A stretch of DNA of 64,000 nucleotides, from IMG/VR virus record IMGVR_UViG_3300038393_002515; one strand, written 5' to 3'. This document shows, piece after piece, positions 2 to 39,979 of this stretch. This DNA is from a virus. A program made the translations under genes and the position numbers. How positions within the stretch are numbered: position 1 is the stretch's first letter; each line of letters begins with the position of its first letter. A model generated the notes under the pieces. It saw nothing but the letters and a program-made list of their open reading frames with translations. It did not search any database and was not told the DNA's origin.

Positions 2-1021
2 CTGGCCGGTGCGTCCTCCGGTGAGACGTACGCGGCCGACGCCCTCAACCGCGACCTGGTCACGCAGATGCTGACCAGTTACCAGAACCTGATCTCCTCC
101 CACTACCGCCAGCGCGCCCTCGTCGTTGCCGAGGCCCAGGAGCACTTCGACTACGAAGAGCGCAACGGCAAGCGGTACGTGAAGATGGAGGAGATCTACG
201 AGGTCGACGAGGAGACCGGCGAGGGCCGGATCGTCGAGCAGCCCAAGCTCCTCATCCCCGACCTGCAGTTCAAGACGATGAGCCTCCAGGACGAGGCCGC
301 GCAGAACGAGTTCTTCGAGGCCCTGCGCGAGGCCGGTGTCCCGATCTCGGTCAAGACCCGCCTGCACAACGTCAACATCGACTTCGACGAGGAGATCGAG
401 AAGTCGCGCGACGAGGCCGTCGAGATGGCGGTCGCCGAACAGGAGACCCGCAAGGCCATCTACATCGCGCTCAAGGACAAGGGCCTGCCGATCCCGCAGG
501 ACCTGCGCTCTGACTTCGAGCCGCGCGCCCTGCCCGAGGATCAGGACCCGAACCAGATGCCGACGGCTCCGTCGCGCATCCCGATCCTCGGCATGGACCC
601 GGTCACCTCGCAGCCCACGCTCGCGCCGACCATGCAGGACCTGACCTCGATCCCGCCGGACGGCGGCGTGGCCATGCCTGGCGGCGTGCCGGAGCCGGTC
701 GACGCCGACCAGGGCGAGGGCGAGCAGCGGCCGGACGAGTCCGACGAGGCGCGAGGCGACATGCCCAAGGAGTCCTCGCTGATCCCGTACCCCCGGCCGC
801 GCCTGGACGACGCCACAGGCCTGTTCCAGAACCACGAGCGGATGAAGGCGCTGGCCGACGAGCACCGGCCCAAGGTCCTGGTGCCCGTCGCCCAGGAGGG
901 CGCGGAAAAGCCCGAGGCGATCCAGCGCAAGCAGGCCGTCGGCCTCTACCAGGGCCCGCGCCACCTCGGCATGCGCCGCCACATCCAGGAGGACGAGATC
1001 AACAAGGAGTTGCAGGCATGA
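2..1021 (+). CDS. Virion-module protein, 5'-partial (possibly the portal C-terminal part)
   Basis: The frame is open from the window edge (LAGASSGETYAADALNRDLVTQM...), so the listed ATG at 68 is internal. Acidic, disordered C-terminus. Stop overlaps the next start (ATGA at 1018-1021). The portal assignment rests on position only. Confidence 0.55.
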   Translation: MAGASSGETYAADALNRDLVTQMLTSYQNLISSHYRQRALVVAEAQEHFDYEERNGKRYVKMEEIYEVDEETGEGRIVEQPKLLIPDLQFKTMSLQDEAAQNEFFEALREAGVPISVKTRLHNVNIDFDEEIEKSRDEAVEMAVAEQETRKAIYIALKDKGLPIPQDLRSDFEPRALPEDQDPNQMPTAPSRIPILGMDPVTSQPTLAPTMQDLTSIPPDGGVAMPGGVPEPVDADQGEGEQRPDESDEARGDMPKESSLIPYPRPRLDDATGLFQNHERMKALADEHRPKVLVPVAQEGAEKPEAIQRKQAVGLYQGPRHLGMRRHIQEDEINKELQA

Positions 1022-3918
1022 CGTTCACCCTGGTCCCGATCACGCGGACCTACCTCGACGGCTCGGGGAACCCGCGTACCGGAACGGTTCGGCTGCAACT
1101 CGTCGGCGTGCTCACCAACAACGGGGAGATCGCCGACCGGCGGCCGTACAGCGCCACGCTGGACGCGCAGGGGAAGATATCCCTGAGCGTCCCGGCCACC
1201 AACGACCCGGACACGCTCCCGGTTGGGGGCGGCACCTACGAGGTGACCGAGACCCTGTCCGGGCTGGCCACGGCCACATACTTCATCGCCGTGCCGTACG
1301 ACGGAGGCCCGATCGACCTGGCGACGGCGCCCCGGCTCGCGCAGGCCCTCGCGCCGGGCATCTTCTTCCAGCCCATCAACCAGCGCGGTCTGCCCAACGG
1401 GTACGCGATCCTGGACGGCTCCGGCCGCGTCCCCTACAGCCAGCTGCCCACCGACATCGGCTCCGGCGGCGGGGGCGGCGGGGGCGCCACCCCGATCAGC
1501 GGCGACGACACCGACATCCAGTCCCTGGGCGTGCGGGCCGCTGGAGCCAGCGGCAAGGCCGCCGACGCCCGGCACGTCCACCAGATGCCGCTCCTGCACC
1601 AGGTGGGCAAGCCGACCTCGGACGTCGATCTGAACGGCAGGCGGATCACGAACGCCGCCGACGGCATCAACCCGCAGGACTACGCCACCGTAGCCCAGCT
1701 CGGCCAGTCTGTCCTCGGCTGGTTCAACGTCAAGGACAAGCAGTACGGCGCCAAGGGCGACGGCACCACGGACGACACGGCGGCCATCCAGGCCGCGATC
1801 GACGCGTGCCCGGCCGGTGGCGTCGTCTACCTGCCGCAGGGCATCTACCGCACCTCCTCGACGCTGTACCCGAAGCCGGGCATCGTCATCCAGGGAGCGC
1901 ACGCGTCCCTGATGTCCGGGGTCAACCTCACCGACCCGCCCTGCTACATCCAGCCGCTGACCTCGTTCACCGGCAACGCGCTGATCACCTTCAAGGACCA
2001 GGCCTCCGGGGGCTACGCGAACCTGCCCGCCGAGCACCGGCTGAACGACATCATGCTCGACGGCTCGACACTGGACGGCACCAAGCCGGTCGACGGCATC
2101 TACGCGGCCGGGAACATCCAGAACGTCGTCATGCGCAACGTGACGATCCGGAAGATGTCGAACAACGGCATCGTCACCGCCGGGATCGACAACGTCTTCC
2201 CCTACAGCTGGCGCCTGCACTCGGTGATGATCGACAACTGCCGTGGCAACGGCATGCTCATCACCCGCATGACCGACCTCACCATGATCGACTGTCAGGC
2301 GATCGGCTGCTGGGCCACCGGCTTCAAGTTCACGAACATCGCCAACTCCACCCTGTCGGTCTGCCGGGCCGAGTGGAACGGCAACCACGGCTTCTGGCTC
2401 ACCGGCTCCTGGGGTAACGCCGCCGGATCCGGCGGCGCCATCCTGTCCGCCTGCAGCACCGACCGCAACGGCTGGGACGGCGTACACGTGGACGCCACCG
2501 GCAACGGCCCGCTCACCATCAGCGCGCTCACCACGCGGCGCGACGGACGCAACGGCGGCTCCGGCGGCGGCGGGTATGCGGGCCTGGCCATCAAGAACGC
2601 CACGCTGCCCGTCGTCGTCGATGGCGTCACCTGCTACACCAGCACCGACGACGACGGTACCGGCGCCCCCTCCCCCGACTACGGCGCCAGCATCACCGGC
2701 AACACCAGCGTGCAGCTGTCCGTCGGCTACCTGCACGGCTTTCTCGGCGGTCTGCACGACGACAACACCAATGCCAGCCTCGTCCTCACCCCGGGCGTCA
2801 CCCTGGTCAGCGGCCCGACCACCAACCCGGCGCGTACGGTGAAGCCCTCACCGACGGACTGGATCAACGCCAAAGACCCCAAGTACGGCGCCAGGGGCGA
2901 CGGCGTCACCGACGACACGGCCGCGCTGCAGGCCGCAGTAAGCGCCGCCGCCGCCCTGAAGACCACCCTCTACATACCCAACGGCACCTACATCGTGTCC
3001 ACGCCCGTCGTCCTCCCGGCCGGAGAGGGCTACTCCATCGTCGGCTCCGGCTGGGGCACGTCCCTGAAGCTGAAGGCAGCCTCCAACTGCTTCATCCTAA
3101 AGATGACCGGCGCCGACACCCGGGTCACCATCCGCGACCTGACCCTCGACGGCAACTGCCTGGAGCAGGGCGCCACCGGCACCTCCGGCGGCATCGACGG
3201 CTCCGGCGCCGTCGCCTGCCGCATCGACAACGTGCACTTCACCGCCTGCCGCGACGACGGGCTCTACCTCGCCGGACAGACGGGCGGAGCGTTCGGGCAC
3301 AACAACCGCATCATCGGCTGCTTGTTCGACCAGTCCATGACGTCGACCGGCCCCGGCCGGGGCATCCAGATGAACAGCAACGACGAGAACCAGATCATCG
3401 GCTGTGACTTCGAGTTCCTCGGCGGCTCCGGCGGCACGGGTGCCGATACCGCCGTGTGCATCCTCGACAAGGCGGGCACGCAGTTCATCTCCGACTGCAA
3501 TTTCGTCGGCGGAGCCACGAACAACACCAAGGGCGTCCGCCTGCAGGACTGCAGCGCAACCAAGATCGAGGGATGCAACTTCGACGGCACCGCCGGTGAC
3601 TCGATCTTCGTCGCCGCCACCGGCAACGTCATCGTCGGCAACACCATCTTCAGCCCCGGCGAAGTCGGCACCCTCAGCGGCCAGGTCTCCGGCATCCACC
3701 TGGAATACGCCACCAAGAACAACCTGATCAGCGCCAACTCCATCGCCTCCTCGCCCACCAACGGCAAGACCCGCAGCCTCATCCGCGAGGAAGCAACAGG
3801 CAGCGCCGGACCCAACCTCATCACCAACAACGTCCTGATCACCAAGGGGACGCTCGCGGTGGCGGCCACCGAGTTCGCGGGCGCCGGATCCATCACGACC
3901 CCCAACCTCGGCGTCTGA
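1018..3918 (+). CDS. Tailspike/depolymerase-like protein with two tandem pectate-lyase-type beta-helix domains
   Basis: Two copies of the beta-helix N-cap signature (YGAKGDGTTDDTAAIQAAIDAC, YGARGDGVTDDTAALQAAV), each followed by Gly/Asn/Thr-rich repeats. Translationally coupled to the upstream ORF. Confidence 0.8.
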   Translation: MTFTLVPITRTYLDGSGNPRTGTVRLQLVGVLTNNGEIADRRPYSATLDAQGKISLSVPATNDPDTLPVGGGTYEVTETLSGLATATYFIAVPYDGGPIDLATAPRLAQALAPGIFFQPINQRGLPNGYAILDGSGRVPYSQLPTDIGSGGGGGGGATPISGDDTDIQSLGVRAAGASGKAADARHVHQMPLLHQVGKPTSDVDLNGRRITNAADGINPQDYATVAQLGQSVLGWFNVKDKQYGAKGDGTTDDTAAIQAAIDACPAGGVVYLPQGIYRTSSTLYPKPGIVIQGAHASLMSGVNLTDPPCYIQPLTSFTGNALITFKDQASGGYANLPAEHRLNDIMLDGSTLDGTKPVDGIYAAGNIQNVVMRNVTIRKMSNNGIVTAGIDNVFPYSWRLHSVMIDNCRGNGMLITRMTDLTMIDCQAIGCWATGFKFTNIANSTLSVCRAEWNGNHGFWLTGSWGNAAGSGGAILSACSTDRNGWDGVHVDATGNGPLTISALTTRRDGRNGGSGGGGYAGLAIKNATLPVVVDGVTCYTSTDDDGTGAPSPDYGASITGNTSVQLSVGYLHGFLGGLHDDNTNASLVLTPGVTLVSGPTTNPARTVKPSPTDWINAKDPKYGARGDGVTDDTAALQAAVSAAAALKTTLYIPNGTYIVSTPVVLPAGEGYSIVGSGWGTSLKLKAASNCFILKMTGADTRVTIRDLTLDGNCLEQGATGTSGGIDGSGAVACRIDNVHFTACRDDGLYLAGQTGGAFGHNNRIIGCLFDQSMTSTGPGRGIQMNSNDENQIIGCDFEFLGGSGGTGADTAVCILDKAGTQFISDCNFVGGATNNTKGVRLQDCSATKIEGCNFDGTAGDSIFVAATGNVIVGNTIFSPGEVGTLSGQVSGIHLEYATKNNLISANSIASSPTNGKTRSLIREEATGSAGPNLITNNVLITKGTLAVAATEFAGAGSITTPNLGV

Positions 3919-5337: not shown

Positions 5338-5343
5338 GCCCTT

Positions 5344-5379
5344 GCTGTCGCTCCACCGGCGGCAGACCCCAAGGGCTGA
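5344..5379 (+). promoter_or_regulatory. Bipartite late-gene element copy 3 (GCTGTC-N23-GGGCTGA)
   Basis: One mismatch in the 3' box. CCACCGGC 5353-5360 pairs with GCCGGTGG 5404-5411, enclosing the SD GAGGGAGG and the start GTG 5408. Confidence 0.55.
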
Positions 5380-5407
5380 AGGAAACAGGCCGTTGAGGGA
5401 GGCGCCG

Positions 5408-8236
5408 GTGGGCGGCAAGTTCGAGCGCGGCGAGCGCCTGGAGCACCAGACGCTGGGCGTGCAGCGGCTCGCGGTGCGCTCCGAGGACTACTGGGAGTAC
5501 AAGCCCGAGCAGCGCGTCCGGACGATCGACGGCGTCACCGGCGTTGTCAAGCACGTCGAGGACGGACCCTTCCCCGGTGCTGAGGAGTATCACGTCGTCC
5601 TGGACCGGGGCATGGGTGGCGGCCAGTACACCGCCTCGCAGCTCAGCCCGGCCCCCATCACCACCGAGGCCATGGAGCAGACGGCGGCCGCCGACTACCC
5701 CGAGCTCTCCCAGATCCTCGTCGAGCGCCCGGACCCGGCCCGCCAGTTCGTCACGGCGGGCAAGAACCCCTTCGCCGATGACGACAACGACGATGACTCC
5801 TCTGACGAGGGCGACGACTCTCATGACGACTCGCAAGACGACCCACATGACGAGGACGACGACTCCGACGAGGACGACTCGGACGACGACTCCGACGACA
5901 AGGACGCTGACGGCGACGACGCGCCTCCGTGGGCCAAGAAGGCGTCCTCCCTCTTCTCCGACCTGGTTGTGACGGCTGCCACCGATGTCGACTTCCGCTT
6001 CCACATCACGGCCGCCTGGCGCGACGTGGTGGCCAAGGCCAAGCGGATCCGTTCCGAGGGCCGCCTGCGCGTCACTCTCGCCTCCGACGGCTACGTGTTC
6101 GGCGAGGTCAAGGGTGACCACCACGTGTACGAGACCGGCCTGCAGCGCCTGCCTGGCCGGGTGGCCGCGCACTCCTGGTCCTGCGGCTGCAAGTGGGGCG
6201 CCTACCACTGGGGCGCCGACGACGACTTCTCCCGGTTCGCCGGGCGCATGTGCTCCCACGCCCTGGCCCTGCAGTACGAGGCCCAGTCGAGGGGGATGTT
6301 CGGCCGCGACATTCACGTGGACGAGCACAAGCCCACCTGGGTGCCCCGCAAGGTCGTCGTCCGCTACGACATCGACGCCGACACCAACCGGCTCGCGCCG
6401 TCGACCGCCCGCAAGCTCGCCTCGTGGGACGCCCCTGAACCCTCCATGTGGGACATGCATTACGGCGACGACCACGACCACGAAGCCGAGCGCCAGGCCA
6501 AGTCGGACGAGTGGGACAGCATTCACGAGGGACTGGGGGACATCCATCGAGGCGTGAACGTCCACCTGCGCCCCGAGGATCACGCGATCGTCCACGACGA
6601 GTCCCGGCCGCTACACGAGCGCGCCCAGCACCTGCTCAAGTCGCTCCCGCACAGCGACCTGGGCCGTGGCCGCGAGGGCCTGGGACGACACTGGACCGAC
6701 AACGAGGGCGTGGCTGAGTCCTTCGGTGACATGGACGACCGCCCGAACCGGCACGGCACGCACCCGACCTCGGTCATCTTCCACGCCGAGAAGCCCGACC
6801 GGCACGCGATCGACGAGGACCCGGACCAGTCGGACGGGATGATCTACGGCTACCACGACCACGGCGAGAGCGAGATCCCGCTCCACCCTGGGGCCGGGGT
6901 GAACCTCAAGGGCATCTCCTGGAAGAACATGGACACGCCCGACGAGGACTTTCGGACCTTCAAGGGCGACGGCCTCTTCGATCACTACTGGGAGCACCAG
7001 CGTCACGACTTCCCGGGCGGCCAGCACGCCTACGCGTCGCTGAGCAAGGCCCCGTTGTCCACCGTCGCGCGCGCTGCCGTGGCGGCCGGTGAGGACAGTG
7101 CCGAGGTCGAGTTGGCCATGCGCACGGTGGGTATTCGACGGACGGCCAGCAGCTGGGACGAGTACCACGAGGACGAAAACGGCCGCCGGTACACCCTCGA
7201 CGAGGACGGCGAGCCGAACTACACCTGCCACAACAAGTACTGCGACGAGGGCGGCGAGCACGGCGGCGACGGCGAGACCGCACAGCGGCACGACGACGTC
7301 TACACCGACTGGGACACCGTTCACCCGCACCTCGGTCCGCACCTCCACCGGGGCATGGCCGTCAGCCTGCCGGACGACGTGCACGGCGTCGTCCATGACG
7401 ACGGCAGGCCGGTAGAAGAGCGCGCGAGCGCGCTGGCCGACCACCTTCGCGAAGAGGGGCTCGGTACGCACTGGACCCCGAACCACGACCAGGCCAGGCA
7501 CTACTCGGGCATCACCGACGGCCGGGACCGCGACACACACGTCATCCTGCACGCCCACACCCCGGCCAAGGAGCACATCGAGACCGACCCCGACGAGCTG
7601 GCCCGCCAGGACGTCATCGCCATGGGCGACCACGACGACGCCGAGGTGCCTCTGCAGTCCGGCGCCCCGGTGAAACTGAAGGGCATTTCCTGGAGGCACC
7701 GTACCGACAAAAAGTGGACCCGGCACGACTTCCCTGGCGGCCTGCAGCACGAGGCCAACGCCAACGCGCCGTTCGGAGAGCCGTCGGGGACGTCGTACGT
7801 GCTGCCCAAGGCGCCGGGTGCGACGGCGCCGAAGAAGCCGTGGGAGAACCCGGCCTCCGCCGGGCCGCTGGCGGGCGCGGACCCGGCGGGCTGGAACCGG
7901 CAGCTGCCGCTGCAGTCGTACGCGGGCATGGACACCGCGCTGTTCGAGCCCGGCGGTACGGAGGCGACGCTGCACGACGAGCCGGAGGGGGCGCTGCCGT
8001 CCACGGACGGTGCGGTGCCGACGGACGAGGCGTCGGATCTGACGCCGTCGATGACGGCGGGTCTGAAGCGGCAGGCGCTGAAGGACTTCACCTTGGCTGA
8101 GCAGCAGGCGCTGATCAACGAGGGCGAGAACGTGCGGGCGGCGAACCTCGACCGCCTGGACATCAAGGGGACCCACTACGCCGACCTGGAGAGCGTCCTG
8201 GCGGCACAGGAGGAGGACACCACATGGCTGGCCTGA
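5408..8236 (+). CDS. Large SWIM zinc-finger protein with poly-Asp tract and two tandem ~120-aa repeats (polyvalent/ejected-protein-like)
   Basis: SWIM signature SCGCKWGAYHW...RMCSHALAL (nt 6182-6259). Asp-rich run nt 5777-5920. Internal repeat HRG..V.L..D.H..VHD..RP..ERA...GLG.HWT...LKGISW at nt 6545-6928 and 7346-7699. Start taken as GTG 5408 after SD GAGGGAGG. Confidence 0.75.
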   Translation: MGGKFERGERLEHQTLGVQRLAVRSEDYWEYKPEQRVRTIDGVTGVVKHVEDGPFPGAEEYHVVLDRGMGGGQYTASQLSPAPITTEAMEQTAAADYPELSQILVERPDPARQFVTAGKNPFADDDNDDDSSDEGDDSHDDSQDDPHDEDDDSDEDDSDDDSDDKDADGDDAPPWAKKASSLFSDLVVTAATDVDFRFHITAAWRDVVAKAKRIRSEGRLRVTLASDGYVFGEVKGDHHVYETGLQRLPGRVAAHSWSCGCKWGAYHWGADDDFSRFAGRMCSHALALQYEAQSRGMFGRDIHVDEHKPTWVPRKVVVRYDIDADTNRLAPSTARKLASWDAPEPSMWDMHYGDDHDHEAERQAKSDEWDSIHEGLGDIHRGVNVHLRPEDHAIVHDESRPLHERAQHLLKSLPHSDLGRGREGLGRHWTDNEGVAESFGDMDDRPNRHGTHPTSVIFHAEKPDRHAIDEDPDQSDGMIYGYHDHGESEIPLHPGAGVNLKGISWKNMDTPDEDFRTFKGDGLFDHYWEHQRHDFPGGQHAYASLSKAPLSTVARAAVAAGEDSAEVELAMRTVGIRRTASSWDEYHEDENGRRYTLDEDGEPNYTCHNKYCDEGGEHGGDGETAQRHDDVYTDWDTVHPHLGPHLHRGMAVSLPDDVHGVVHDDGRPVEERASALADHLREEGLGTHWTPNHDQARHYSGITDGRDRDTHVILHAHTPAKEHIETDPDELARQDVIAMGDHDDAEVPLQSGAPVKLKGISWRHRTDKKWTRHDFPGGLQHEANANAPFGEPSGTSYVLPKAPGATAPKKPWENPASAGPLAGADPAGWNRQLPLQSYAGMDTALFEPGGTEATLHDEPEGALPSTDGAVPTDEASDLTPSMTAGLKRQALKDFTLAEQQALINEGENVRAANLDRLDIKGTHYADLESVLAAQEEDTTWLA
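5777..5920 (+). repeat. GAC/GAT-rich low-complexity tract encoding ~48 mostly Asp/Ser/Glu residues
   Basis: DDDNDDDSSDEGDDSHDDSQDDPHDEDDDSDEDDSDDDSDDKDADGDD, read directly from the frame of the 5408-8236 CDS. Confidence 0.9.
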
Positions 8237-8658
8237 CGACCGACGACACCGAGTCGATGCCCGCCGAGGCGGCGGTCGACGGTACCGATCCGAAGTGCCC
8301 GTTCCTGGGTGACAGTCAGCGCTTCACCTGGTCCCGTGAGCTGGAGATGGGCCAGCTGCAGGACGAGGTCACCGAGGCCATGGGCTCGGCCGTCCGGCTG
8401 GCGGCGTTCTTCCCGCTCGATGACGAGGGGAACCGGCTCGGGGTGGACGCGCAAAATCCGGTCACCGTGTACGTCACGCCGTCCTCGGCGGACCTGGCGG
8501 CGGTGAAGCAGGTGCTGGCCGCGCACAGGCCGGATCCGTACTACGGCATGACGGACGAGGAGAAGGCGCAGGTGCAGCTGCGGGAGAAGATAGCGGCGGG
8601 CCAGGCGCTGTCTCCGGAGGAGATGACGCTGGCCCTGCAGATGCTGATCTCCGGCTGA
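8224..8658 (+). CDS. Hypothetical protein
   Basis: 144-aa ORF with G/C-rich third positions. Its ATG overlaps the end of the upstream CDS. Followed by a strong hairpin. Confidence 0.7.
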   Translation: MAGLTTDDTESMPAEAAVDGTDPKCPFLGDSQRFTWSRELEMGQLQDEVTEAMGSAVRLAAFFPLDDEGNRLGVDAQNPVTVYVTPSSADLAAVKQVLAAHRPDPYYGMTDEEKAQVQLREKIAAGQALSPEEMTLALQMLISG

Positions 8659-8670
8659 AAAACCGCATTT

Positions 8671-8708
8671 CCGTCGAGCCGCCTTTCCGTTGAAGGGCGG
8701 CTCGACGG
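8671..8708. terminator. Bidirectional terminator-like hairpin between convergent genes
   Basis: CCGTCGAGCCGCC (8671-8683) / GGCGGCTCGACGG (8696-8708): 13-bp perfect stem. Lies between the + gene ending at 8658 and the - gene ending at 8711. Confidence 0.65.
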
Positions 8709-8710
8709 CG

Positions 8711-9283
8711 TTACAGGCCCAGCATGAAAACGGGTCCGGCAACGACGGCGCCGAGGATGGCACCGGCGATCGTCTGGGGGACGGTGTGGTCCTTGAGGTG
8801 CTGCCGAGACCAGGCCACGAGCGGGATGAGCGCGGCGGAGAGAATCCACCAGGGGCCGTAGAGCAGGCCGAGCATGGCGAGTGCGCCCGACAGGACGGAC
8901 GTGTGGAAGCTGATCTTGGTGTACTTCGTGATGGGCCACAGAAGGGCGACGGTGGCCAGCATGGCGCCGACCATGGACAGGACCGGCTTCGGGGCCCCGC
9001 CGACGACCATGAGCGTCAGGCAGGTCAGGACGGACAGGACGATGACCGGGATGACGACCATCCGGCGGGACCGCTCGGGGACGTGCCGGTCGGCGAAGGT
9101 CTTCTTCTCGCCGGTGAGGACGATGAACATGATCGGTATGACGGCGCAGAAGACTATGGCCACCGCACCCCAGCCGAGGCCGGACCAGCCGTAGTTCACG
9201 CCGACGAGCATGCACAGGACGAAGATGACGTTCTTGGGGTCGACGAAGTCGGTCAGGGCTCGTGCGGCCTGGGTGCGGGTCAC
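8711..9283 (-). CDS. Integral membrane protein, PAP2-phosphatase-like
   Basis: About 6 hydrophobic helices. C-terminal half carries SFHTSV ... SRQHLKDH, resembling PAP2 motifs C2 (PSGH) and C3 (SRxxxxxHxxxD). GTGA overlap with the upstream gene. Confidence 0.6.
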   Translation of the reverse strand: MTRTQAARALTDFVDPKNVIFVLCMLVGVNYGWSGLGWGAVAIVFCAVIPIMFIVLTGEKKTFADRHVPERSRRMVVIPVIVLSVLTCLTLMVVGGAPKPVLSMVGAMLATVALLWPITKYTKISFHTSVLSGALAMLGLLYGPWWILSAALIPLVAWSRQHLKDHTVPQTIAGAILGAVVAGPVFMLGL

Positions 9284-10548
9284 GCGTGCACTCCGGTGGA
9301 AAGTCTGCGGTACATGAGCCCCAGCTGAGTCGTGTCGCGGATGGACCGGCCGACGGGGAGGAGCGTGTTCGTGGCGATGAAGGGGTCGGTGGTGCCGGTG
9401 AGAGTCGCCAGCGGCTGGATGGCCACCGGTTCGCCGTCGAACGGCTTCTCTCCGTTCCGCTTAAGCCGCATCGCTTCGCGGAGCAGGTAGGCGGCCACCG
9501 CGTGCTCCGGGAGCTTCAGCGCCCGGCCCGCAGCCCCGGCGCGGCTGTGGAGGTCCGGCGGCACGTAGTAGGCGAGGTTGAGGGCGGCATCGAGAATCTC
9601 GTTGACCCTCCTGCGAAGCCGGGTGTCCAGGTCTCGCCAGTCCCAGTACTCGCGCAGGTGGCTGGTCCGCTTGGGCCGCCGGTGTGCCGGGCAGTCGTAG
9701 ATGGCGGTGGGTACCGCGTCGGTGAGGACGGCCCACAGCGGGCGCAGGTCGTTGATGGCTCCGTGGGCCTTCACTATCTCGTTCAGACGCTCCCACTTCG
9801 GGGCCGCGCCTCCGACGACGACGAGGAGGATGCAGGTGACGAGGCAGAAGTTCGAGGTGAAGTCGACGAAGTGGTCGCCGCCGAGGAACGGTTTGTCGCA
9901 CAGGCGGGTGATCAGGTACCCGGAGCGGAGGATCCCGTACGCCGAGCCGATCGAGCAGCCGAGGGCGACGACCTGCATGCCGTACTTGAAGGGGCCCGGG
10001 GCGGCGGCGCGGGCGGCGTCGAGGCACATCAGGGTCGCGCAGATCAGGCCGAAGACGAGGTAGGCGTAGAAGAGCAGGAGGTGGAGGCTGCCCCAGAGGT
10101 GGCCTGCCTGGACGAAGATGAAGTCGGCGTCGTCCTGGTTTCCCGTCCGTCGCTGGGCGAGGGGGAAGATGGCGGTGATGACGGCGATGGCGGCCCAGGT
10201 GATGATGCGTCGGGGGTTGCTGCTGATGAGCTGCCGGTAGGTGGGCTCCCGGCGGCCGTCCAACCGGCCGGGGACGACATCGGTCACCCAGTGCAGAAGG
10301 AGGGCAACGGCGGCGATCCCCGTGAGGTGCTTGGCGAGGGTGGCGATGTCGTCCACGCCGGTGAGGTGGTAGAGGAAGTCCCCGACCGCCTGGATCTTGG
10401 TGACCATCGAGATGTCGAGGGCCAGGAAGACCATAAAGAGGGTCCGGGAGCGGGGGTTGCGGTAGGCGGCGGGTCCCCTGCGGATGACTTCCTCAGTGAG
10501 GAGGACGACGACGATCCAGGCGGGAAGATCGGAAGGTGTGGCGGGCAC
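9280..10548 (-). CDS. Multi-pass membrane protein with a soluble C-terminal domain (MAB_1171c-like putative transporter architecture)
   Basis: 422 aa. The N-terminal ~250 aa has about 7-8 hydrophobic helices and the C-terminal part is soluble. Lies directly downstream of an XRE + HExxH-protease pair, as known for that actinobacterial family. Family assignment is from memory, not a search. Confidence 0.6.
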   Translation of the reverse strand: MPATPSDLPAWIVVVLLTEEVIRRGPAAYRNPRSRTLFMVFLALDISMVTKIQAVGDFLYHLTGVDDIATLAKHLTGIAAVALLLHWVTDVVPGRLDGRREPTYRQLISSNPRRIITWAAIAVITAIFPLAQRRTGNQDDADFIFVQAGHLWGSLHLLLFYAYLVFGLICATLMCLDAARAAAPGPFKYGMQVVALGCSIGSAYGILRSGYLITRLCDKPFLGGDHFVDFTSNFCLVTCILLVVVGGAAPKWERLNEIVKAHGAINDLRPLWAVLTDAVPTAIYDCPAHRRPKRTSHLREYWDWRDLDTRLRRRVNEILDAALNLAYYVPPDLHSRAGAAGRALKLPEHAVAAYLLREAMRLKRNGEKPFDGEPVAIQPLATLTGTTDPFIATNTLLPVGRSIRDTTQLGLMYRRLSTGVHA

Positions 10549-10561
10549 CGGTTCTCATCTC

Positions 10562-11173
10562 TCAGGTGTCGAGACTTGCTCTCATGTTGTTTTCGAGGAG
10601 GGTTGCCCCACGGGGGGCGTGCTTGGCCATCCAGGTCTCGGCGTAGTACCCGAAGTCCTCGGCTTTGCGTTCGCGGTCCTCGTTGCTGGTGCCGTCGGCG
10701 CGGCACTGGACGCCAGCGGCCGCGAGGGAGTCTGACAGGAGGGCCGCCGATCCGCTGCACACCCCCCTCAGGAGGCGGAGGACGGCGGCGAGGTCGAGCC
10801 GGTTGGGCTCGTCTCCGTTGACCATGTGACCAAGCTCGTGACCGAGGACGTGGTGGTACTGCACAGGCGGGATCGTGGGGTGGGCCCACACCAGGTCGGC
10901 GTCCGGGGTGGGGTACCACATGCCGCTCGGCCCGTTCGGTGAGGTCATCCGGGAGTCGCGGCTCAGGATGAGCTTGCGGCCGCGTACCTGCTCTACATAA
11001 GCGCGCAGCAGGTCCTCAACGGTCCAGGGAGACGTGGGAAGCGCCAGTCCCGTCAGCGCCTGCCCCCAGGTCCCCTTCAGGCCGCTCCGGTTCCGCATCA
11101 GTCCCATCCAAGCCCCCAGTTGATCACTAAGGCCGCCATTTACGCCACTCAGCGTAAGGCAAGGGGCTGACAA
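10562..11173 (-). CDS. ImmA/IrrE-like zinc metalloprotease (HExxH)
   Basis: HHVLGHELGHMVNGDE motif. Sits 5 nt downstream of the XRE gene. Start is uncertain: TTG 11173 or the internal ATG at 11107. Confidence 0.7.
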   Translation of the reverse strand: MSAPCLTLSGVNGGLSDQLGAWMGLMRNRSGLKGTWGQALTGLALPTSPWTVEDLLRAYVEQVRGRKLILSRDSRMTSPNGPSGMWYPTPDADLVWAHPTIPPVQYHHVLGHELGHMVNGDEPNRLDLAAVLRLLRGVCSGSAALLSDSLAAAGVQCRADGTSNEDRERKAEDFGYYAETWMAKHAPRGATLLENNMRASLDT

Positions 11174-11178
11174 TGGCC

Positions 11179-11754
11179 CTACCCGGTCTGGTCCTCCTGG
11201 GCCCCCTGTAGGCCGAGCAGCGCGAGACGCAGGATGGCTCTTGCCTGCCCGGAGTCCGCCCCGTCGAGCCCTCGGAAGAGGGCGCCCATCAACGCCGTGC
11301 CCTGGGTACTCTCATCGCTACCCTCCGTAGTGCTGTCGAGCTTCTGGATGGCCTTGGCCGCTTGCACGCCGAGCTCGATGAGTTCCACTTCGCGCTCGAT
11401 CTGTCTGGTTCTCTCCGTGGCGTCGGTGCCGACGCGCCAGTAGTCCGTCTCGACCCCGAAGAACAGACTGAGCGCCTCGATGATGCTGAACGGCGGGTTC
11501 GTCCGCTTGCCGTCCTTCAGGTCGCTCAGGTACTGGCGGTTGACGGCGTCGGACTCTGCTCGAATCATCTCGCACGCCTGTGCGATTTCCTCCATACTGG
11601 CACCGGCGTCCTGGAGCTCCTGGGTCACCCGCGAAATCTTCTTGTCGCGGTACAACCCTGAGGCCCTCGCGGCGATCTCACTCAACGGGTACGTCTGCCC
11701 GTCCGGTCCGCGCTTGAGGTCACGCAACTTGCGGAACTTCTCACCGAGCGGCAT
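11179..11754 (-). CDS. XRE-family helix-turn-helix regulator (candidate prophage repressor, ImmR-like)
   Basis: N-terminal HTH (KFRKLRDLK...YPLSEIAARASG...ISRVTQ) and a second HTH-like segment (NRQYLSDLKDGKRTNPPFSIIEALSLFFGV). Strong SD GGAGGGGGGAGG before ATG 11754. Divergent from the + strand genes. Confidence 0.75.
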   Translation of the reverse strand: MPLGEKFRKLRDLKRGPDGQTYPLSEIAARASGLYRDKKISRVTQELQDAGASMEEIAQACEMIRAESDAVNRQYLSDLKDGKRTNPPFSIIEALSLFFGVETDYWRVGTDATERTRQIEREVELIELGVQAAKAIQKLDSTTEGSDESTQGTALMGALFRGLDGADSGQARAILRLALLGLQGAQEDQTG

Positions 11755-11870
11755 GGCCTCCCCCCTCCGTGTGTCTAGTTGAAAAAAGTCGGCCCATGGA
11801 GGCGATCCTAGCGCCGCCGTAAGGATTCATGACACCGGGAACCCGGAAACGAGCTGAAGCGTCAGAAAAG

Positions 11871-11901
11871 TTGACACCAGCACCACTTGGCGTCATACGA
11901 T
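11871..11901 (+). promoter_or_regulatory. Possible sigma70(HrdB)-type promoter in the divergent control region
   Basis: TTGACA 11871-11876, then a 19-nt spacer, then TACGAT 11896-11901. The spacer is longer than optimal, so this is tentative. Confidence 0.25.
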
Positions 11902-11992
11902 CAGCTCAACAAACTGACAGACCGCGAACTGACGGGGGTGACGGGGCATGGGCGCAGCGCCGACAACCGCACCGATCCCCTTCTCGTGGATC

Positions 11993-12027
11993 CTGTCCGG
12001 GCGCACCTGTACGTCGGCAAGGGGCGA
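11993..12027 (+). promoter_or_regulatory. Bipartite late-gene element copy 4 (CTGTC-N23-GGGGCGA)
   Basis: CTGTC 11993-11997 and GGGGCGA 12021-12027. Next start is GTG 12053, after SD GAGGAG. Confidence 0.55.
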
Positions 12028-12052
12028 AGAGTCCCCGGCCCGAGGAGACAAG

Positions 12053-12358
12053 GTGCTCACGCCCCCAGCCATCATCCGGACGATCGTCCCCTCGATCGTC
12101 GGCTTCATCCTGGCGTTCCTCGCCTCGCACAACATCCATGTCAGTGCCGAGGTCGAGACGTACCTGACCGGCCTGCTGACCGTGGGTCTCGGCGGCGTCT
12201 ACTACGTCGTCGCCTCTGCTCTGCAGTCGCGCTGGCCGCTCGCGGGCCTGCTCCTCGGCTCCACCGCTCGGCCGACCTACACGGGACGGCACCGCCTGAC
12301 CAGCGCCACCGATCCGACGACCGCCACGTCGGATCCCACTCCGGAAGACCGGCCGTAG
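12053..12358 (+). CDS. Small two-helix membrane protein (holin-like topology)
   Basis: VLTPPAIIRTIVPSIVGFILAFLAS ... LTGLLTVGLGGVYYVVASAL: two hydrophobic helices and a polar tail. SD GAGGAG lies 5 nt before GTG 12053; the listed ATG 11948 extension looks non-coding. Confidence 0.6.
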   Translation: MLTPPAIIRTIVPSIVGFILAFLASHNIHVSAEVETYLTGLLTVGLGGVYYVVASALQSRWPLAGLLLGSTARPTYTGRHRLTSATDPTTATSDPTPEDRP

Positions 12359-12390: not shown

Positions 12391-12437
12391 GAGCCCCGGC
12401 CGACCCACTTCCTCGCCAGGAAGGTCGGCCGGGGCTC
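12391..12437 (+). terminator. Strong terminator-like hairpin
   Basis: GAGCCCCGGCCGACC (12391-12405) / GGTCGGCCGGGGCTC (12423-12437): 15-bp perfect stem, followed by TCTCTGTATTG. Confidence 0.7.
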
Positions 12438-12494: not shown

Positions 12495-12525
12495 GCGACA
12501 AACTCTTAATAAGTCTATTTGTCGC
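12495..12525. repeat. AT-rich inverted repeat in a 400-bp non-coding gap
   Basis: GCGACAAA (12495-12502) / TTTGTCGC (12518-12525) around the loop CTCTTAATAAGTCTA. This is one of the most A+T-rich spots I noticed in the window. Confidence 0.8.
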
Positions 12526-12686
12526 CAAAGCGAGGTTCACGCCTCCGCTTCGGCAACAAACCGGTCGCCCAACCTGAATTGTGCCTCAACCCTTGGCCAC
12601 AGGTTCCCCCTTCACGAGGCCTATACAACTCCGTATCGAACCCGTTGCCGCCAACGCCCTCCTGCCCGCCCAGCGCACGAGACCTC

Positions 12687-12721
12687 CTGTTCGTCACACC
12701 CCCTCCGCCCCCAAGGAGCGA
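12687..12721 (+). promoter_or_regulatory. Bipartite late-gene element copy 5 (CTGTT-N23-GGAGCGA, degenerate)
   Basis: CCCTCCGC 12701-12708 can pair with GCGAGGG 12718-12724 (one bulge). Next start is GTG 12762. Confidence 0.45.
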
Positions 12722-12761
12722 GGGCGCACCATGCGCCGCCGCCCGCACAGGAGGACCCGGT

Positions 12762-15700
12762 GTGCTGAAGTTCGCCACGGCCCAGATCATCGCCGCGTCG
12801 CTCGGCGACCAACAGCGCATCACCAGGGCGGCCCACCGCGCGGTCTTCCAGTACGAAGCGCGCCCCGGCTTCTTGTACGTACGCAGCAGGGCCATCAGTT
12901 CACGCTGCAACGACAACTTCGACGAGTTCCCCGCCGAAGAGATCGAAAAGTCGTACAAGACCTTCGTCGGCAAGCCGGTCTTCGTGAACCACGTCAACGA
13001 CAACCACCGGCGCGCCCGGGGCGTCATCATCGACGCCGCCCTCCACCGAGACCGCAACCCCGACGGCACGCCGGACACATGGGCCGAAGTCCTCATGGAA
13101 ATCGACGCCGTCCGGTTCCCGAAGCTGGCCAAGGCGATCCTCGCCGGACACATCGACCGGACCTCCATGGGCTGCGACGTCGAGCGCTCCGTGTGCTCCG
13201 CCTGCGGCAACGAGGCCCGCACGCCCACCGAGTACTGCTCCCACATCCCGCACCTGAAGGGCAAGCGCATCTTCCGCGCCACCGCCAGCGGGAAGAAGGT
13301 CGGCGAGCTCGTCCGCGAGACCTGCTTCGGCCTCCGGTTCTTCGAGAACAGCGTGCTCGTCGAGCCCCCGGCGGACCCGACTGCTCATTTCCTCGGCGTG
13401 GACTCTTCCGGCCTCGGCAAGGCCGCCTCGAAGAGCGCCGCGATCGACTACTCCGCCTTCGAGGACAACGACGACCTGGAGGCGGACGACGACGGCGAGG
13501 ACACCGCGCCTCAGCCGAAGCCCGCCTACCCGGCCTCGCACGCCAAGTCGCCGGTGCCGCATGTCCCGTTCGAGGGCACCACGCACGACCACCAGCGCCG
13601 CCAGGACGCGGTGCAGCACGCCCGGCCCTTCACGCCGCTCAAGCCGAGCCTCAACGGCCTGCAGGCGACGGCGGCCGCGAAGAAGCCCGCGCCCAAGGCG
13701 GCCGAGCCCGAGGTGGACGAGTACGGCACCCCGAAGCCGAAGCGAGGCCAGCCGTACGAGCCTGCGGGAGACCACCCCTGGTACAAGCAGGTCCCGCTGC
13801 ACCACTCCAACATCGTCGACCACTGGGACAAGGCCACCGACGAGGAGAAGGACTCGGGCATGCGCTGGTACAGCGACGCCCACCACGTCGCCAAGGCCAT
13901 CGCCCGCCTCGACCCGCGCATCAAGACCGACGAGGAGGCCGCCCACAAGGGCGCCGGTGTCCTGTCGGCCTACAGCCCGCGCACCAACTGGCCGCAGAAC
14001 ATGTTCAACGCGGCCCACTCCTTCCACCGCCAGGCCGCCGTCCGCCCTCTCAAGGACGACCCGGACAAGCCCGCCCACGTCACCACCATGGGTATGCACG
14101 CCGACAAGGCGCAGCGCATCATGGACGGCGAGCACCACCAGCCGGTCCTGAACTCGCCCAAGACGCAGGACTTCGCCCACCTCATCGAGCACGGCGGCTA
14201 CGAGCCGCAGACCGAGGAGGAGAAGAAGTCCGGTGCCGAACGGCGGCACAGCGGCCGCGTGGTCATCGACCGCCACGCGCTGTCCGTGGCGGCCGGGCGC
14301 CGGATCACCGACGTCGAGAACGACGCCCACCAGGGCTTCCCCGGCGCCTCCAGCGGCAAGCACGCACGGCACTACTACGAGCACGCCGCCAACACCTACC
14401 GCAACGCGGCCGCCGCCATCTCCGAGAAGGAGGGCAAGCCGGTCGCCGCGCACCAGGTGCAGGCGGTGACCTGGCTGGTGCGCCAACGGCTCAACACCGC
14501 CGAGGACCAGGCCAACGCGAACGCCAGCGCGAAGAACCTGGGCGCGGGCCGCAACAAGGCCGAGGAGAACATCAAGGGCCACTGGAAGGACTTCGCGGGC
14601 GAGCACACGCCGGAGCTGAAGGAAAAGGGCAACTCCCACGTGGCCAGGCTCATTGACGCCACGTACATCAACGACGACGGCACGATCCGCGCCATCGCGT
14701 ACGGGGAGATCAAGGCACCGGCCGACGTCGACACGCTCCGCGAGGAGAACTGCCCGGTCTGCGGCGACAAGGACACCTTCGACGGTATCCAGTGCCAGAT
14801 CTGCGGGTTCATCAACCCGCCCGAGCAGTTCCGTGACCCCGACCTCGACAAGGCCAAGACCCTCGACCTGCGCAAGCAGATCGTCGACCCCAGCCTCGTC
14901 GACGACAACGGCGAGCTGCAGCGTGTCAACGACGACGGCACCGGCATGCCGCAGGAAGACGGCATGCCTGGCGACGAGGAACAGCAGCTGGGCCCCGACG
15001 GTCAGCCGCTCGACGAGGACGGCCCGCAGATGGTCGACCCCGAGCAGCTCGACGAGAACGGCCTGCCGCCCTCCCCGTGGGGCGACCAGACCCTCGACGG
15101 CACGATGCAGGGTGCCCCGACCTTCTCCGACCGCAACGGCGACGGCATGATCCAGCCGGACGAGATCGACCCCGACGGCAACGTCAACGTCCAGCAGAAC
15201 ATGATGGTCGACCCCGAGCAGGGCGGCCAGGCAGGCCCGCGCGAGCTGCCCGGCCGCGCCAGGGACCGCACGGGCGACCCGTTCACCCCCGGCCCCGACA
15301 TGCCCCGCCTCCAGGGCCCCGAAGGACCGGAAGACGGACTGGACGACGAAGACACCTTCCAGGCCGGTCCCGGCATGGGAGCTCCGCAGGAGCCGATCCT
15401 GGCGCACCCCGGCGACTACACCGGCGACGAGAGCGAGACGCCGCACTGGTCCTGGAACAGGGACGTGGACGAGGAACCCCAGGCGCCCAACGAGGACGAG
15501 GACCCGCAAGACCCGCGTCGCCGACGCCTTGGGATGTCGGCGGCCCCGCGCACCCCGAAGGACGGACAGCCGAACGACGGCGCGCCCGACCTGAGCTGCC
15601 CCCACTGCGGATTCGGAGCGGACGCCACCGCCCCGCAGACCCAGGACATGGGCAACCCGCAAGGCGCGACCGACGGCATCGTCGCCGGAGACGTCTGCCC

Positions 15701-15794
15701 GAACTGCCGCAAGGCCCAGCTGCTCACCCCCGCCGAGCTGCAGGGCGAGTCTTCCGTCCCTCCGCCTGCTGTCCCGCAGCTGTCCCGGAGCTGA
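12762..15794 (+). CDS. Giant head-module fusion protein: N-terminal prohead-protease-like domain, central helical domain, Asp/Glu/Pro/Gly-rich tract, two zinc ribbons
   Basis: Start at GTG 12762, 7 nt after AGGAGG; the upstream part of the listed ORF is low-complexity and non-coding-like. N-terminal region FVGKPVFVNHVNDNHRRARGVIIDA...TSMGCDVERSVCSACG. CxxC pairs at nt 14751-14804 and 15598-15707. Sits directly upstream of the scaffold-like and capsid genes. The protease call is positional and motif-level only. Confidence 0.7.
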   Translation: MLKFATAQIIAASLGDQQRITRAAHRAVFQYEARPGFLYVRSRAISSRCNDNFDEFPAEEIEKSYKTFVGKPVFVNHVNDNHRRARGVIIDAALHRDRNPDGTPDTWAEVLMEIDAVRFPKLAKAILAGHIDRTSMGCDVERSVCSACGNEARTPTEYCSHIPHLKGKRIFRATASGKKVGELVRETCFGLRFFENSVLVEPPADPTAHFLGVDSSGLGKAASKSAAIDYSAFEDNDDLEADDDGEDTAPQPKPAYPASHAKSPVPHVPFEGTTHDHQRRQDAVQHARPFTPLKPSLNGLQATAAAKKPAPKAAEPEVDEYGTPKPKRGQPYEPAGDHPWYKQVPLHHSNIVDHWDKATDEEKDSGMRWYSDAHHVAKAIARLDPRIKTDEEAAHKGAGVLSAYSPRTNWPQNMFNAAHSFHRQAAVRPLKDDPDKPAHVTTMGMHADKAQRIMDGEHHQPVLNSPKTQDFAHLIEHGGYEPQTEEEKKSGAERRHSGRVVIDRHALSVAAGRRITDVENDAHQGFPGASSGKHARHYYEHAANTYRNAAAAISEKEGKPVAAHQVQAVTWLVRQRLNTAEDQANANASAKNLGAGRNKAEENIKGHWKDFAGEHTPELKEKGNSHVARLIDATYINDDGTIRAIAYGEIKAPADVDTLREENCPVCGDKDTFDGIQCQICGFINPPEQFRDPDLDKAKTLDLRKQIVDPSLVDDNGELQRVNDDGTGMPQEDGMPGDEEQQLGPDGQPLDEDGPQMVDPEQLDENGLPPSPWGDQTLDGTMQGAPTFSDRNGDGMIQPDEIDPDGNVNVQQNMMVDPEQGGQAGPRELPGRARDRTGDPFTPGPDMPRLQGPEGPEDGLDDEDTFQAGPGMGAPQEPILAHPGDYTGDESETPHWSWNRDVDEEPQAPNEDEDPQDPRRRRLGMSAAPRTPKDGQPNDGAPDLSCPHCGFGADATAPQTQDMGNPQGATDGIVAGDVCPNCRKAQLLTPAELQGESSVPPPAVPQLSRS

Positions 15795-39432: not shown

Positions 39433-39504
39433 TCCGGGTCCCTTCCTAGGCGGTTGTCGCCCCACATCTTGCCGCACCGGCGTTGCCCGGGTGCGCAGGA
39501 CCCC

Positions 39505-39539
39505 GTGTTTCACCCCCGATTTGAAGCGGAAGGGGGTGA
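39505..39539 (+). promoter_or_regulatory. Bipartite late-gene element copy 15 (GTGTT-N23-GGGGTGA, degenerate 5' box)
   Basis: TCACCCCC 39510-39517 pairs with GGGGGTGA 39532-39539. SD GGAGGTGG and ATG 39551 follow. Confidence 0.45.
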
Positions 39540-39550
39540 GGAGGTGGCTC

Positions 39551-39979
39551 ATGAAGACGCTGGCTCTCGTCGGCGGTGACCTGGCACTGGGGGATGGCGG
39601 CTACCGGACGCTCACCGGCGCGGCCCGCATCCGGCAGGACCTGGCGCTCGCGCTCGCCGAGCCGTACGGCCACGACACCTACCACCCGCAGTTCGGGTCG
39701 GTGCTGGCCGCGCACATCGGTGAGCCGCTGACGCCGGAATTGGAGCTGCTGGTCCGCGCGGAGGTCGTGCGGGTGGTCCAGCAGTACGTGGACGGCCAGC
39801 AGGCTCAGATCGCAGCCGACGCCCTGTCCGGTTCCCGGTCACGGTTCAGCTTCCAGGATGTGGTGCAGTCGGTGCAGTCCATCAGTACGGACATCCAGTA
39901 CGACACGATCAAGGTGACCATCGCGCTGAAGACGCAGTCCGGCGGTACGGTCCGAGTGCTGCGGACGGTGAGCACCTGA
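39551..39979 (+). CDS. Baseplate wedge protein, gp25/GPW-like
   Basis: 142 aa. MKTLALVGGDLALGDGGY...IRQDLALAL...G...P.FGS pattern typical of the GPW/gp25 family. Precedes the J-like gene. Confidence 0.7.
   Translation: MKTLALVGGDLALGDGGYRTLTGAARIRQDLALALAEPYGHDTYHPQFGSVLAAHIGEPLTPELELLVRAEVVRVVQQYVDGQQAQIAADALSGSRSRFSFQDVVQSVQSISTDIQYDTIKVTIALKTQSGGTVRVLRTVST

Follow-up and report, generated by a model that had tools for sequence, protein, structure and literature searches.

Several switches of bacteria and their mobile elements consist of a helix-turn-helix (HTH) regulator and an HExxH metallopeptidase of the IrrE/M78 kind: ImmR/ImmA of ICEBs1 and phage phi105, DdrO/IrrE of Deinococcus, and CapH/CapP of cyclic-oligonucleotide-based antiphage signalling systems (CBASS). 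ImmR/ImmA and DdrO/IrrE work by regulated cleavage of the HTH regulator, and the known triggers of the three systems are cytoplasmic, namely RecA or RapI, zinc or oxidative stress, and single-stranded DNA. In BlaR1/BlaI and MecR1/MecI, a membrane sensor governs a zinc protease of the gluzincin type, which eliminates a repressor bound to DNA. We analysed a 64,000-nt stretch of viral DNA (IMG/VR virus record IMGVR_UViG_3300038393_002515; the whole stretch is referred to here as the window), in which an earlier note, made from the letters alone, had described a four-gene minus-strand operon between virion genes and likened it to the ImmR/ImmA switch. The open reading frames (ORFs), coordinates and flanks match that description: four co-directional minus-strand ORFs, which we call X, P, D and A, occupy positions 8711–11754. 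We find that X belongs to the family of the Mycobacterium tuberculosis regulator EspR, that P is a predicted relative of the ImmA/IrrE peptidases and D a DUF6545/MAB_1171c membrane protein, and that X, P and D form a trio that recurs on chromosomes, plasmids and phage-plasmids. The observation made in the earlier note is confirmed, with the corrections given below, and its interpretation is partly supported.

EspR (Rv3849) regulates its own expression and binds at least 165 loci, among which cell-wall functions are enriched; a feedback model based on EspR secretion, proposed early on, was contradicted by a later study, which never found EspR secreted (PMC3315491). Published work on M. tuberculosis places espR between rv3848 and rv3850.

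X belongs to the EspR family of regulators

A profile of the X family (alignment A8) matched M. tuberculosis EspR over its full length with an E-value of 6e-35. The match, to EspR chains 3r1f, 3qf3 and 4ndw, pairs profile positions 13–143 with residues 4–132 and takes in both the HTH and the C-terminal dimerisation domain. The recognition helices are near-identical (YLSDLKDGKRTNP in X, YLSQLRSGNRTNP in EspR). EspR was also matched by X of the Streptomyces chromosomal core locus (E = 5e-21), and it was the best solved-structure match of the window X taken alone (E = 2e-4, residues 41–107). An immunity-repressor structure, by contrast, matched the X family profile only at E = 0.003. X is thus EspR-type and not CI/ImmR-type, and the ImmR-type regulator that the earlier note had envisaged has to be given up.

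The broader assignment of X to the XRE HTH proteins holds at the level of the family, in which 34 of 39 members match HTH_3. The window copy falls short of it, scoring 15.6 bits against a cut-off of 23 and matching the domain in its second half only. We attribute this weak standalone score to a lineage-specific insertion of about 35 amino acids in the HTH turn of the phage X, which is visible in alignment A8. The insertion, together with a sequence identity of only about 25–30%, sets the window X apart from EspR.

P is a predicted divergent relative of ImmA/IrrE peptidases

The catalytic signature HExxH...ExxAE is invariant in the P family, whose invariant residues are D93, H112, E113, H116, E168, A171 and E172. 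Pfam Peptidase_M78, the IrrE N-terminal-like domain, is matched by 28 of 37 family members at E-values up to 0.1 (best, 3.3e-5), and a Rhodococcus homologue bears the PGAP name 'ImmA/IrrE family metallo-endopeptidase'. From these sequence comparisons P is predicted, at the family level, to be a divergent subfamily of ImmA/IrrE-type metallopeptidases. An ImmA-like protease beside an HTH regulator, as first proposed, is therefore upheld for the family and not for the window copy, which has no M78 match, hits only phrog_87 ('metallo-protease', E = 1e-4) and M48 (E = 0.013), and finds its best solved-structure match in the M48 protease BepA (E = 0.01). M48 proteases share a peptidase clan with the M56 domain of BlaR1.

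D is a DUF6545/MAB_1171c membrane protein that looks receptor-like

D scored 135.8 bits against NCBIfam NF042915 (cut-off 100) and 68.5 bits against Pfam DUF6545, PF20182 (cut-off 24.4; E = 1e-18), and is securely a member of the DUF6545/MAB_1171c family, as had been called for this 422-aa protein. In profile hidden Markov model (HMM) searches on all four proteins, D was thus above curated cut-offs, and the window copies of X, P and A were below the Pfam thresholds.

The AlphaFold model of D (pLDDT 86.8) shows seven transmembrane helices and not the eight counted before, and then a helical domain spanning about 175 amino acids (approximately residues 249–419). The charges of the loops fit a predicted topology in which the N-terminus is outside and the C-terminal domain cytoplasmic, and the conserved cytoplasmic motifs include LRPLW and RRxxEIxDA. 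In a Foldseek search of the PDB, the best matches were G-protein-coupled receptors and rhodopsins (E = 0.03–0.3; target-normalised TM-scores 0.19–0.53), and no transporter was among the matches. A comparison of the D profile with the sequences of solved structures gave nothing significant, the best E-value being 0.53, for a vacuolar calcium transporter. On the basis of the model, D looks receptor-like rather than transporter-like. A literature search for DUF6545/MAB_1171c found no functional study and only a Mycobacterium abscessus transposon mutant in MAB_1171c, which is viable, forms about 50% less biofilm, has altered minimum inhibitory concentrations and was classed with transport genes (PMC8707978).

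X, P and D form a conserved trio

We searched 185,579 species genomes with a five-sequence DUF6545 alignment and obtained 80 loci. These, together with phage and metagenome loci, contain 87 DUF6545 genes, whose surroundings were read by ORF calling and iterated HMMs; the loci had been selected by similarity to D only. At 73 of the 87 genes, D has X and P as same-strand neighbours, and from the P side all three homologues that we looked up independently are followed by a DUF6545 gene. The trio is therefore widespread in actinobacterial chromosomes, as the earlier note stated. X immediately precedes P on the same strand, a feature of ImmR/ImmA, and this pairing is kept at the 73 loci. There are two gene orders, X-P-D(-A) and D-X-P, and in gene-caller annotations P and D overlap by up to 8 nt or are separated by up to 33 nt.

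Most loci are chromosomal, in Streptomyces, Kitasatospora, Actinomadura, Amycolatopsis and Chloroflexota. In Streptomyces chromosomes the D-X-P form has one conserved site, next to genes for a TetR regulator and a PKS-aminotransferase (PKS, polyketide synthase), and one Streptomyces chromosome has the full X-P-D-A set. The D-X-P order is paralleled, in order and strand, by rv3848-espR-rv3850 of M. tuberculosis; going by this order and by their sizes, Rv3848 may belong to the D family and Rv3850 to the P family, but mycobacterial entries were absent from the literature searches and from the cluster names of ten representatives.

The module is also found on conjugative plasmids and in two unrelated phage-plasmid lineages. 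In one of these, Streptomyces phage Gilgamesh (129 kb) and similar circular plasmids of 125–130 kb carry X-P-D-A followed by uppS and ParA; Gilgamesh was not among the phages that share the capsid protein of the window. In the other, that of the window, X-P-D was at the same site in every member seen, including a relative whose A is only 48% identical. The A gene is dispensable within this lineage, being absent from plasmid pRLB1-9.1 (described below) and from two further relatives (L105 and L106), and the A family is present on 75 actinobacterial plasmids. The portal-to-capsid region of Rhodococcus phage Finch, which shares the capsid protein, held no such cassette, and a megablast search of the cassette against phage genomes gave no match. 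Based on these distributions, we conclude that the core is the X-P-D trio, that A is accessory, and that the module moves between chromosomes, plasmids and phage-plasmids.

Rhodococcus and Arthrobacter plasmids (L102, L103 and L104) have a P-D-A operon with an X-family gene just downstream on the opposite strand. These plasmids are conjugative or mobilisable, and their module is shorter (P of about 160 aa, a D-like protein of 321–359 aa, and A) and lies near cell-wall hydrolase and ParA genes. The UppS of Gilgamesh-type elements is a cis-prenyltransferase (Pfam Prenyltransf, 8e-48) encoded between the PAP2-like gene and ParA, at 6879–7598 in phage Gilgamesh (L001) and at 6866–7585 in NZ_CP107934.1 (L094). 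On a Kitasatospora chromosome (L003, 8001–8666), a lone A homologue, 46–49% identical and separate from X, P and D, adjoins enoyl-CoA hydratase and acyl-CoA dehydrogenase genes. Two apparent fusions were not counted as evidence: one of protease and membrane protein in L035, which proved to be a degenerate remnant lacking HExxH, and one of P with the DUF6545 cytoplasmic domain lacking the transmembrane region (P0290, Streptomyces gobiensis, 323 aa), a single case that is probably a deletion.

The cassette resides on a temperate Streptomyces phage-plasmid

The window carries portal, capsid, sheath, baseplate and helicase genes, and its major capsid protein is 57–60% identical to those of the large actinobacterial myoviruses Rhodococcus Finch, E3 and Mycobacterium Myrna. 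Myrna, E3 and Finch are regarded as lytic; a strictly lytic host phage, suggested by the capsid similarity, was overruled by plasmid evidence. Positions 28000–52999 are 88% identical in nucleotide sequence, over 88% of this 25-kb query, to pRLB1-9.1 (NZ_CP041653.1), a complete circular plasmid of 154,158 bp from Streptomyces sp. RLB1-9 with the same gene order. A ParA gene (38635–39552) and a partner gene lie on the minus strand among the tail genes. Because of the identity to a circular plasmid and the presence of ParA, we take the element to be temperate and extrachromosomal, and the lysogeny that had been assumed for it is borne out. With its virion gene set, its partition gene and an autonomous plasmid relative in a cultured host, the element is a phage-plasmid. 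D or A homologues occur on contigs of 150.6–158 kb in at least about 20 Streptomyces assemblies. Our literature search found no paper describing this lineage of myovirus-like Streptomyces phage-plasmids of about 150–158 kb, and in the literature on strain RLB1-9 the plasmid is nowhere discussed as a phage.

The cassette had been taken for the only obvious immunity locus of the phage, which it is not. A second minus-strand regulator at 57089–58609, a protein of 506 aa with a winged-helix HTH (HTH_20, 5e-8), is divergent from helicase and replication genes, has a homologue 77% identical on pRLB1-9.1, and is a candidate second regulator of lysogeny or replication. In addition, pRLB1-9.1 carries, outside the range of the window, further HTH regulators and, at positions 66000–78000 (L096), two tyrosine recombinases.

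Most of the virion and replication proteins compared are 74–97% identical between the window and pRLB1-9.1. P is 73% identical, D 60% and X 58%, and the other fast-diverging proteins are a 964-aa acidic protein (53%), the tailspike (47%) and ParA (36%). The divergence of X, D, ParA, the tailspike and the acidic protein fits the pattern expected of specificity determinants.

A is a marginal relative of PAP2 phosphatases

The window A scores 18.7 bits against Pfam PAP2 (PF01569), below the cut-off of 27.2, and six homologues that are 26–48% identical to it score 27.5–31.5 bits. The PAP2 call made in the earlier note thus holds for the family and not for the window protein alone, and A is a PAP2 relative, at family level, by a marginal assignment. 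The invariant motifs are H67-x6-R74, K123-x-S125-x-H127 and S159-R160-x5-H166-x3-Q170. Their order and spacing are those of the three motifs of the PAP2 phosphatases of lipids and undecaprenyl pyrophosphate (YbjG, PgpB, BcrC) and of glucose-6-phosphatase, and the arrangement of five transmembrane helices (TM) and three motifs (C1-TM-TM-C2-TM-TM-C3-TM) is as in PAP2 enzymes. A differs from canonical PAP2 in having Hx6R for Kx6RP, KxSxH for PSGH and SRx5Hx3Q for SRx5Hx3D; the third motif of glucose-6-phosphatase likewise has Q in place of D. This third motif of A aligned to Escherichia coli YbjG (hhalign E = 4e-4, probability 35%) and to glucose-6-phosphatase; hhalign found nothing against E. 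coli PgpB, and only the third motif against YbjG.

A Foldseek search of the PDB with the AlphaFold model of A (pLDDT 94) returned no PAP2 entry, the best match having an E-value of 0.39 and TM-scores lying below 0.36. Since Foldseek is weak on small all-helical membrane proteins, this result lowers the PAP2 claim and does not exclude it. A positive-inside count places the motif side of A in the cytoplasm (6.7 versus 0.75 Lys+Arg per sequence). With low confidence, the motif side of A would therefore face the cytoplasm, opposite to the known bacterial enzymes.

The cassette is laid out as an autonomous transcription unit

The four genes form one operon, with a 13-nt gap between P and D and a 4-nt overlap between D and A (Table 1). 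A gap of 5 nt between X and P had also been reported; it exists only if P starts at TTG 11173, as in its longest ORF (10562–11173, 203 aa, in which HELGH is residues 112–116). Independent gene callers, on identical or related contigs, place the start of P at ATG 11107 (181 aa) or ATG 11098 (178 aa), which leaves 71–80 nt. The ATG of X is preceded by a GGAGG ribosome-binding site. The GC content at third codon positions of all four ORFs is of the coding type (0.81–0.93, in a window of 68% GC), and since each of the four has intact homologues, in dozens of independent elements overall, they are real genes and not chance ORFs.

The hairpin beyond A has a stem of at least 13 bp and a ΔG of -42.1 kcal/mol (z = -4.28 versus shuffled sequences), is followed by a U-run, and sits in a 52-nt gap shared with the convergent gene 8224–8658. 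Given this hairpin at the 3' end and the divergent intergenic region before X, the cassette is an autonomous transcription unit. It is flanked by virion genes: portal (68–1021), a pectate-lyase-like tailspike (1018–3918), a prohead-protease/DUF7178 protein that ends at 15794 and the major capsid protein, which ends at 18429. For the prohead-protease/DUF7178 protein, whose longest reading runs from 12519 to 15794, gene callers put the start at about 12762 and not at 12519; its homologue on pRLB1-9.1 carries the PGAP name 'ParB/RepB/Spo0J family partition protein'.

Table 1. Positions of the cassette genes and of associated features in the window
Feature	Positions	Strand	Description
X	11179–11754	minus	EspR-family helix-turn-helix DNA-binding protein, 191 aa
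P	10562–11107	minus	predicted ImmA/IrrE-like zinc metallopeptidase, HELGH; 181 aa from ATG 11107
D	9280–10548	minus	DUF6545/MAB_1171c-family membrane protein, 422 aa
A	8711–9283	minus	small PAP2-like membrane protein, 190 aa; accessory module member
Terminator-like hairpin	8671–8708	minus	directly 3' of the A stop codon
Divergent regulatory region	11755–12052		between X and plus-strand gene 12053–12358; 298 nt
Candidate X operator	12496–12524		palindrome CGACAAA-N15-TTTGTCG, upstream of the prohead-protease/capsid operon

A palindrome before the capsid operon is a candidate operator of X

The candidate operator lies about 740 nt from X and about 240 nt before the gene-caller start at 12762, and is the sole site of its kind in the window, where 0.1 would be expected. 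It is kept at the same position in pRLB1-9.1 and in the relative L012 (half-site TTTGCCG), and L004 has a half-site only. The consensus of EspR is TTTGC[TC][GA], and the site in the espR promoter reads CAGCAAA<16>TTTGCTC (PMC3315491). The palindrome thus resembles an inverted-repeat EspR operator and adds to the likeness between X and EspR; by this analogy it is a candidate site to which X may bind. The two proteins differ in reach, since EspR is a chromosomal nucleoid-associated protein with at least 165 sites and the palindrome occurs once on this phage. Half-sites of the loosened EspR consensus, TTTGYYR, were not enriched across the window (13 versus 16.9 expected).

Between X and its divergent neighbour, a TAGGAT at 11805–11810 on the minus strand is a -10-like hexamer for X, and a conserved block at 11871–11901 reads TTGACA-N19-TACGAT on the plus strand. 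An alignment of four relatives, including the distant L004, showed ATCGTATG and GTGTCAA to be invariant upstream of X, and a terminator scan flagged inverted TGAC/GTCA arms at 11872–11895. Further along, at 12391–12437, just after the 101-aa gene 12053–12358 and before the candidate operator, there is a perfect 15-nt inverted repeat (GAGCCCCGGCCGACC / GGTCGGCCGGGGCTC) with a 17-nt loop, which is probably a terminator separating two plus-strand units.

A possible membrane-gated switch on an EspR-like repressor

Our reading of the cassette, tentative and inferred at every step, is that an EspR-like repressor is switched by proteolysis under the control of the membrane. While the element is a plasmid prophage, X would bind DNA, likely in its own divergent promoter region and at the palindrome before the capsid-assembly operon, and would silence the capsid operon and probably also the operon to which X itself belongs. 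P would cleave and so inactivate X, as in ImmA/ImmR, IrrE/DdrO and CapP/CapH. D would be the membrane-side partner: its receptor-like bundle of seven helices might sense an envelope or membrane-lipid cue, and its cytoplasmic domain might hold, release or activate P, such that D and P together would resemble a split BlaR1 sensor-protease. A, with UppS in the Gilgamesh-type elements, might act on polyprenyl (di)phosphate and thereby tune or generate the cue; facing the cytoplasm, it may act on newly made polyprenyl diphosphate.

Among described systems, the module stands closest to the pairs of HTH regulator and IrrE-type protease, of which we regard it as a three-component variant centred on an EspR-family protein. 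It shares with ImmR/ImmA, DdrO/IrrE and CapH/CapP the combination of an HTH regulator and a predicted IrrE/M78-kind HExxH metallopeptidase, the placement of this pair on a mobile element and, by analogy, the expected derepression by cleavage of the regulator. It differs from them in that P would be of a divergent subfamily, that the regulator is EspR-type and not CI/ImmR-type, and that D is a constant third partner, whereas those systems have no dedicated seven-helix membrane protein. The proposed arrangement is also analogous to BlaR1/BlaI and MecR1/MecI, in which a membrane sensor governs the protease. Here, however, sensor and protease would be separate polypeptides, there is no penicillin-binding sensor domain, BlaI is unrelated to X, and no homology between D and BlaR1 was detected.

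Several sets of observations are counted in favour of the proposed switch. Among them are the constancy of the trio, the membership of X in the EspR family, the catalytic signature of the P family, the receptor-like build of D, the divergence pattern relative to pRLB1-9.1 and the palindrome before the capsid operon. A tie to the temperate lifestyle is suggested by the constant site of the cassette within the lineage, its presence in Gilgamesh-type phage-plasmids and its absence from the corresponding region of Finch. A link to undecaprenyl-phosphate chemistry is supported indirectly by uppS, which directly follows the cassette in Gilgamesh-type phage-plasmids.

Several points weigh against it. 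The insertion in the HTH turn might alter or abolish DNA binding by X, and the window X and P, taken alone, score below curated thresholds. We did not find the palindrome in L105, L106 or L004, which are more distant members of the lineage, and no clear conserved inverted repeat or operator was found directly upstream of X. The similarity of D to seven-helix receptors is marginal (E > 0.02), with root-mean-square deviations of 6–8 Å for the best-superposed matches, and in the Streptomyces D-X-P order P and D are not neighbours. Other candidate regulators of the phage-plasmid exist, namely the 57089–58609 protein and the HTH regulators of the sister plasmid. Finally, because the module also stands at a conserved, non-mobile site of the Streptomyces chromosome, its ancestral role would not be control of a prophage.

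The alternative closest to the earlier note is that X and P form a CapH/CapP-like stress switch, responding for example to DNA damage, and that D and A are its cargo, induced as membrane effectors for superinfection exclusion or for envelope remodelling via the polyprenyl-phosphate pool or surface glycopolymers. We consider this somewhat unlikely. All four genes make up one transcription unit, so that removal of X would raise D and A together, and CapH/CapP pairs do control neighbouring operons by cleavage of the repressor (bioRxiv 10.1101/2022.04.27.489752); cargo varies in systems of that type, however, whereas here D is constant and A optional. The PAP2-like nature of A, the adjacent uppS in Gilgamesh-type elements and the wide occurrence of the A family on plasmids would suit an envelope effector, but D shows no pore, transporter or enzyme signature. 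PADLOC 2.0 gave a weak match of X to capH (E = 4.9e-4) as its sole match in the cassette, and none for P, D or A. The related EspR, moreover, acts on a regulon spread across the genome and does not merely repress a single operon; because an EspR-type regulator has outputs beyond its neighbours, P and D are likelier controllers of X than cargo.

It is quite improbable, in our judgement, that the cassette is a maintenance or conflict module, acting in addiction (toxin-antitoxin-like), in incompatibility or exclusion, or in abortive infection, with D a membrane toxin that X and P restrain. Xre-COG2856 pairs were reportedly predicted by Makarova, Wolf and Koonin in 2009 to be toxin-antitoxin-like, and one database source labels a P homologue 'Toxin'; PADLOC found no match that would place the module there. 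Its location on plasmids and phage-plasmids, where it adjoins ParA in the Gilgamesh-type and Arthrobacter plasmids, and the fast divergence of X and D, like that of ParA, between sister elements would suit such a role, but a syntenic copy at one core locus in many Streptomyces chromosomes is unusual for addiction modules. The M. abscessus mutant in the family namesake is viable, with phenotypes in antibiotic susceptibility and biofilm only (PMC8707978).

The database reading, in which D is a small-molecule transporter, A a phosphatase that processes its substrate, and X and P local regulators, has in its favour the NCBIfam name ('MAB_1171c family putative transporter') and the classing of the M. 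abscessus transposon mutant with transport genes (PMC8707978), but is highly improbable, since the family name is itself a prediction, Foldseek gave no transporter likeness, no sequence relative was found among solved structures, and transporters do not typically combine a seven-helix bundle with a large, conserved helical domain in the cytoplasm.

If the membrane-gated switch proposed here is correct, phage-plasmids of about 155 kb in Streptomyces would possess a lysogeny-linked switch driven from the membrane and not by RecA or DNA damage, and the involvement of PAP2-like and UppS proteins suggests that the lipid-carrier cycle of the host may be read or altered by mobile elements. The partnership of X, P and D also gives the DUF6545/MAB_1171c family its first mechanistic hypothesis. 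A wider version, which we regard as speculative and rather unlikely, is that a seven-helix DUF6545 receptor and an ImmA/IrrE-like protease control the EspR family of regulators as a whole, M. tuberculosis EspR (with Rv3848 and Rv3850) among them, and that large Streptomyces phage-plasmids and actinobacterial conjugative plasmids have co-opted this control to time lytic or transfer genes by the state of the polyprenyl-phosphate and cell-wall cycle. Were this so, it would amount to an unnoticed, split, BlaR1-like signalling pathway from envelope to DNA. If the conserved neighbours of EspR are a protease and a membrane receptor, the control of EspR would be directly testable in Streptomyces, which is fast-growing and non-pathogenic.

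Other features of the phage-plasmid family

The ParA gene and the gene for its 294-aa partner (37751–39552, minus strand) are inserted among plus-strand tail genes, and the low identity of ParA to that of pRLB1-9.1 contrasts with 79–94% for its neighbours. This pattern looks like a swap of a partition or incompatibility cassette. The 964-aa protein at 5342–8236 contains a long acidic tract rich in Asp, Ser and Glu within an otherwise conserved block. The 66000–78000 stretch of pRLB1-9.1 also carries an ATP-grasp pair for a ribosomally synthesised and post-translationally modified peptide (tgmA with an MvdC/MvdD-family protein) and a module of a WhiJ-like HTH protein, a DUF397 protein and an ATP-binding protein. 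One Joint Genome Institute contig, of 309,833 bp, is about twice the unit length of this phage-plasmid family.

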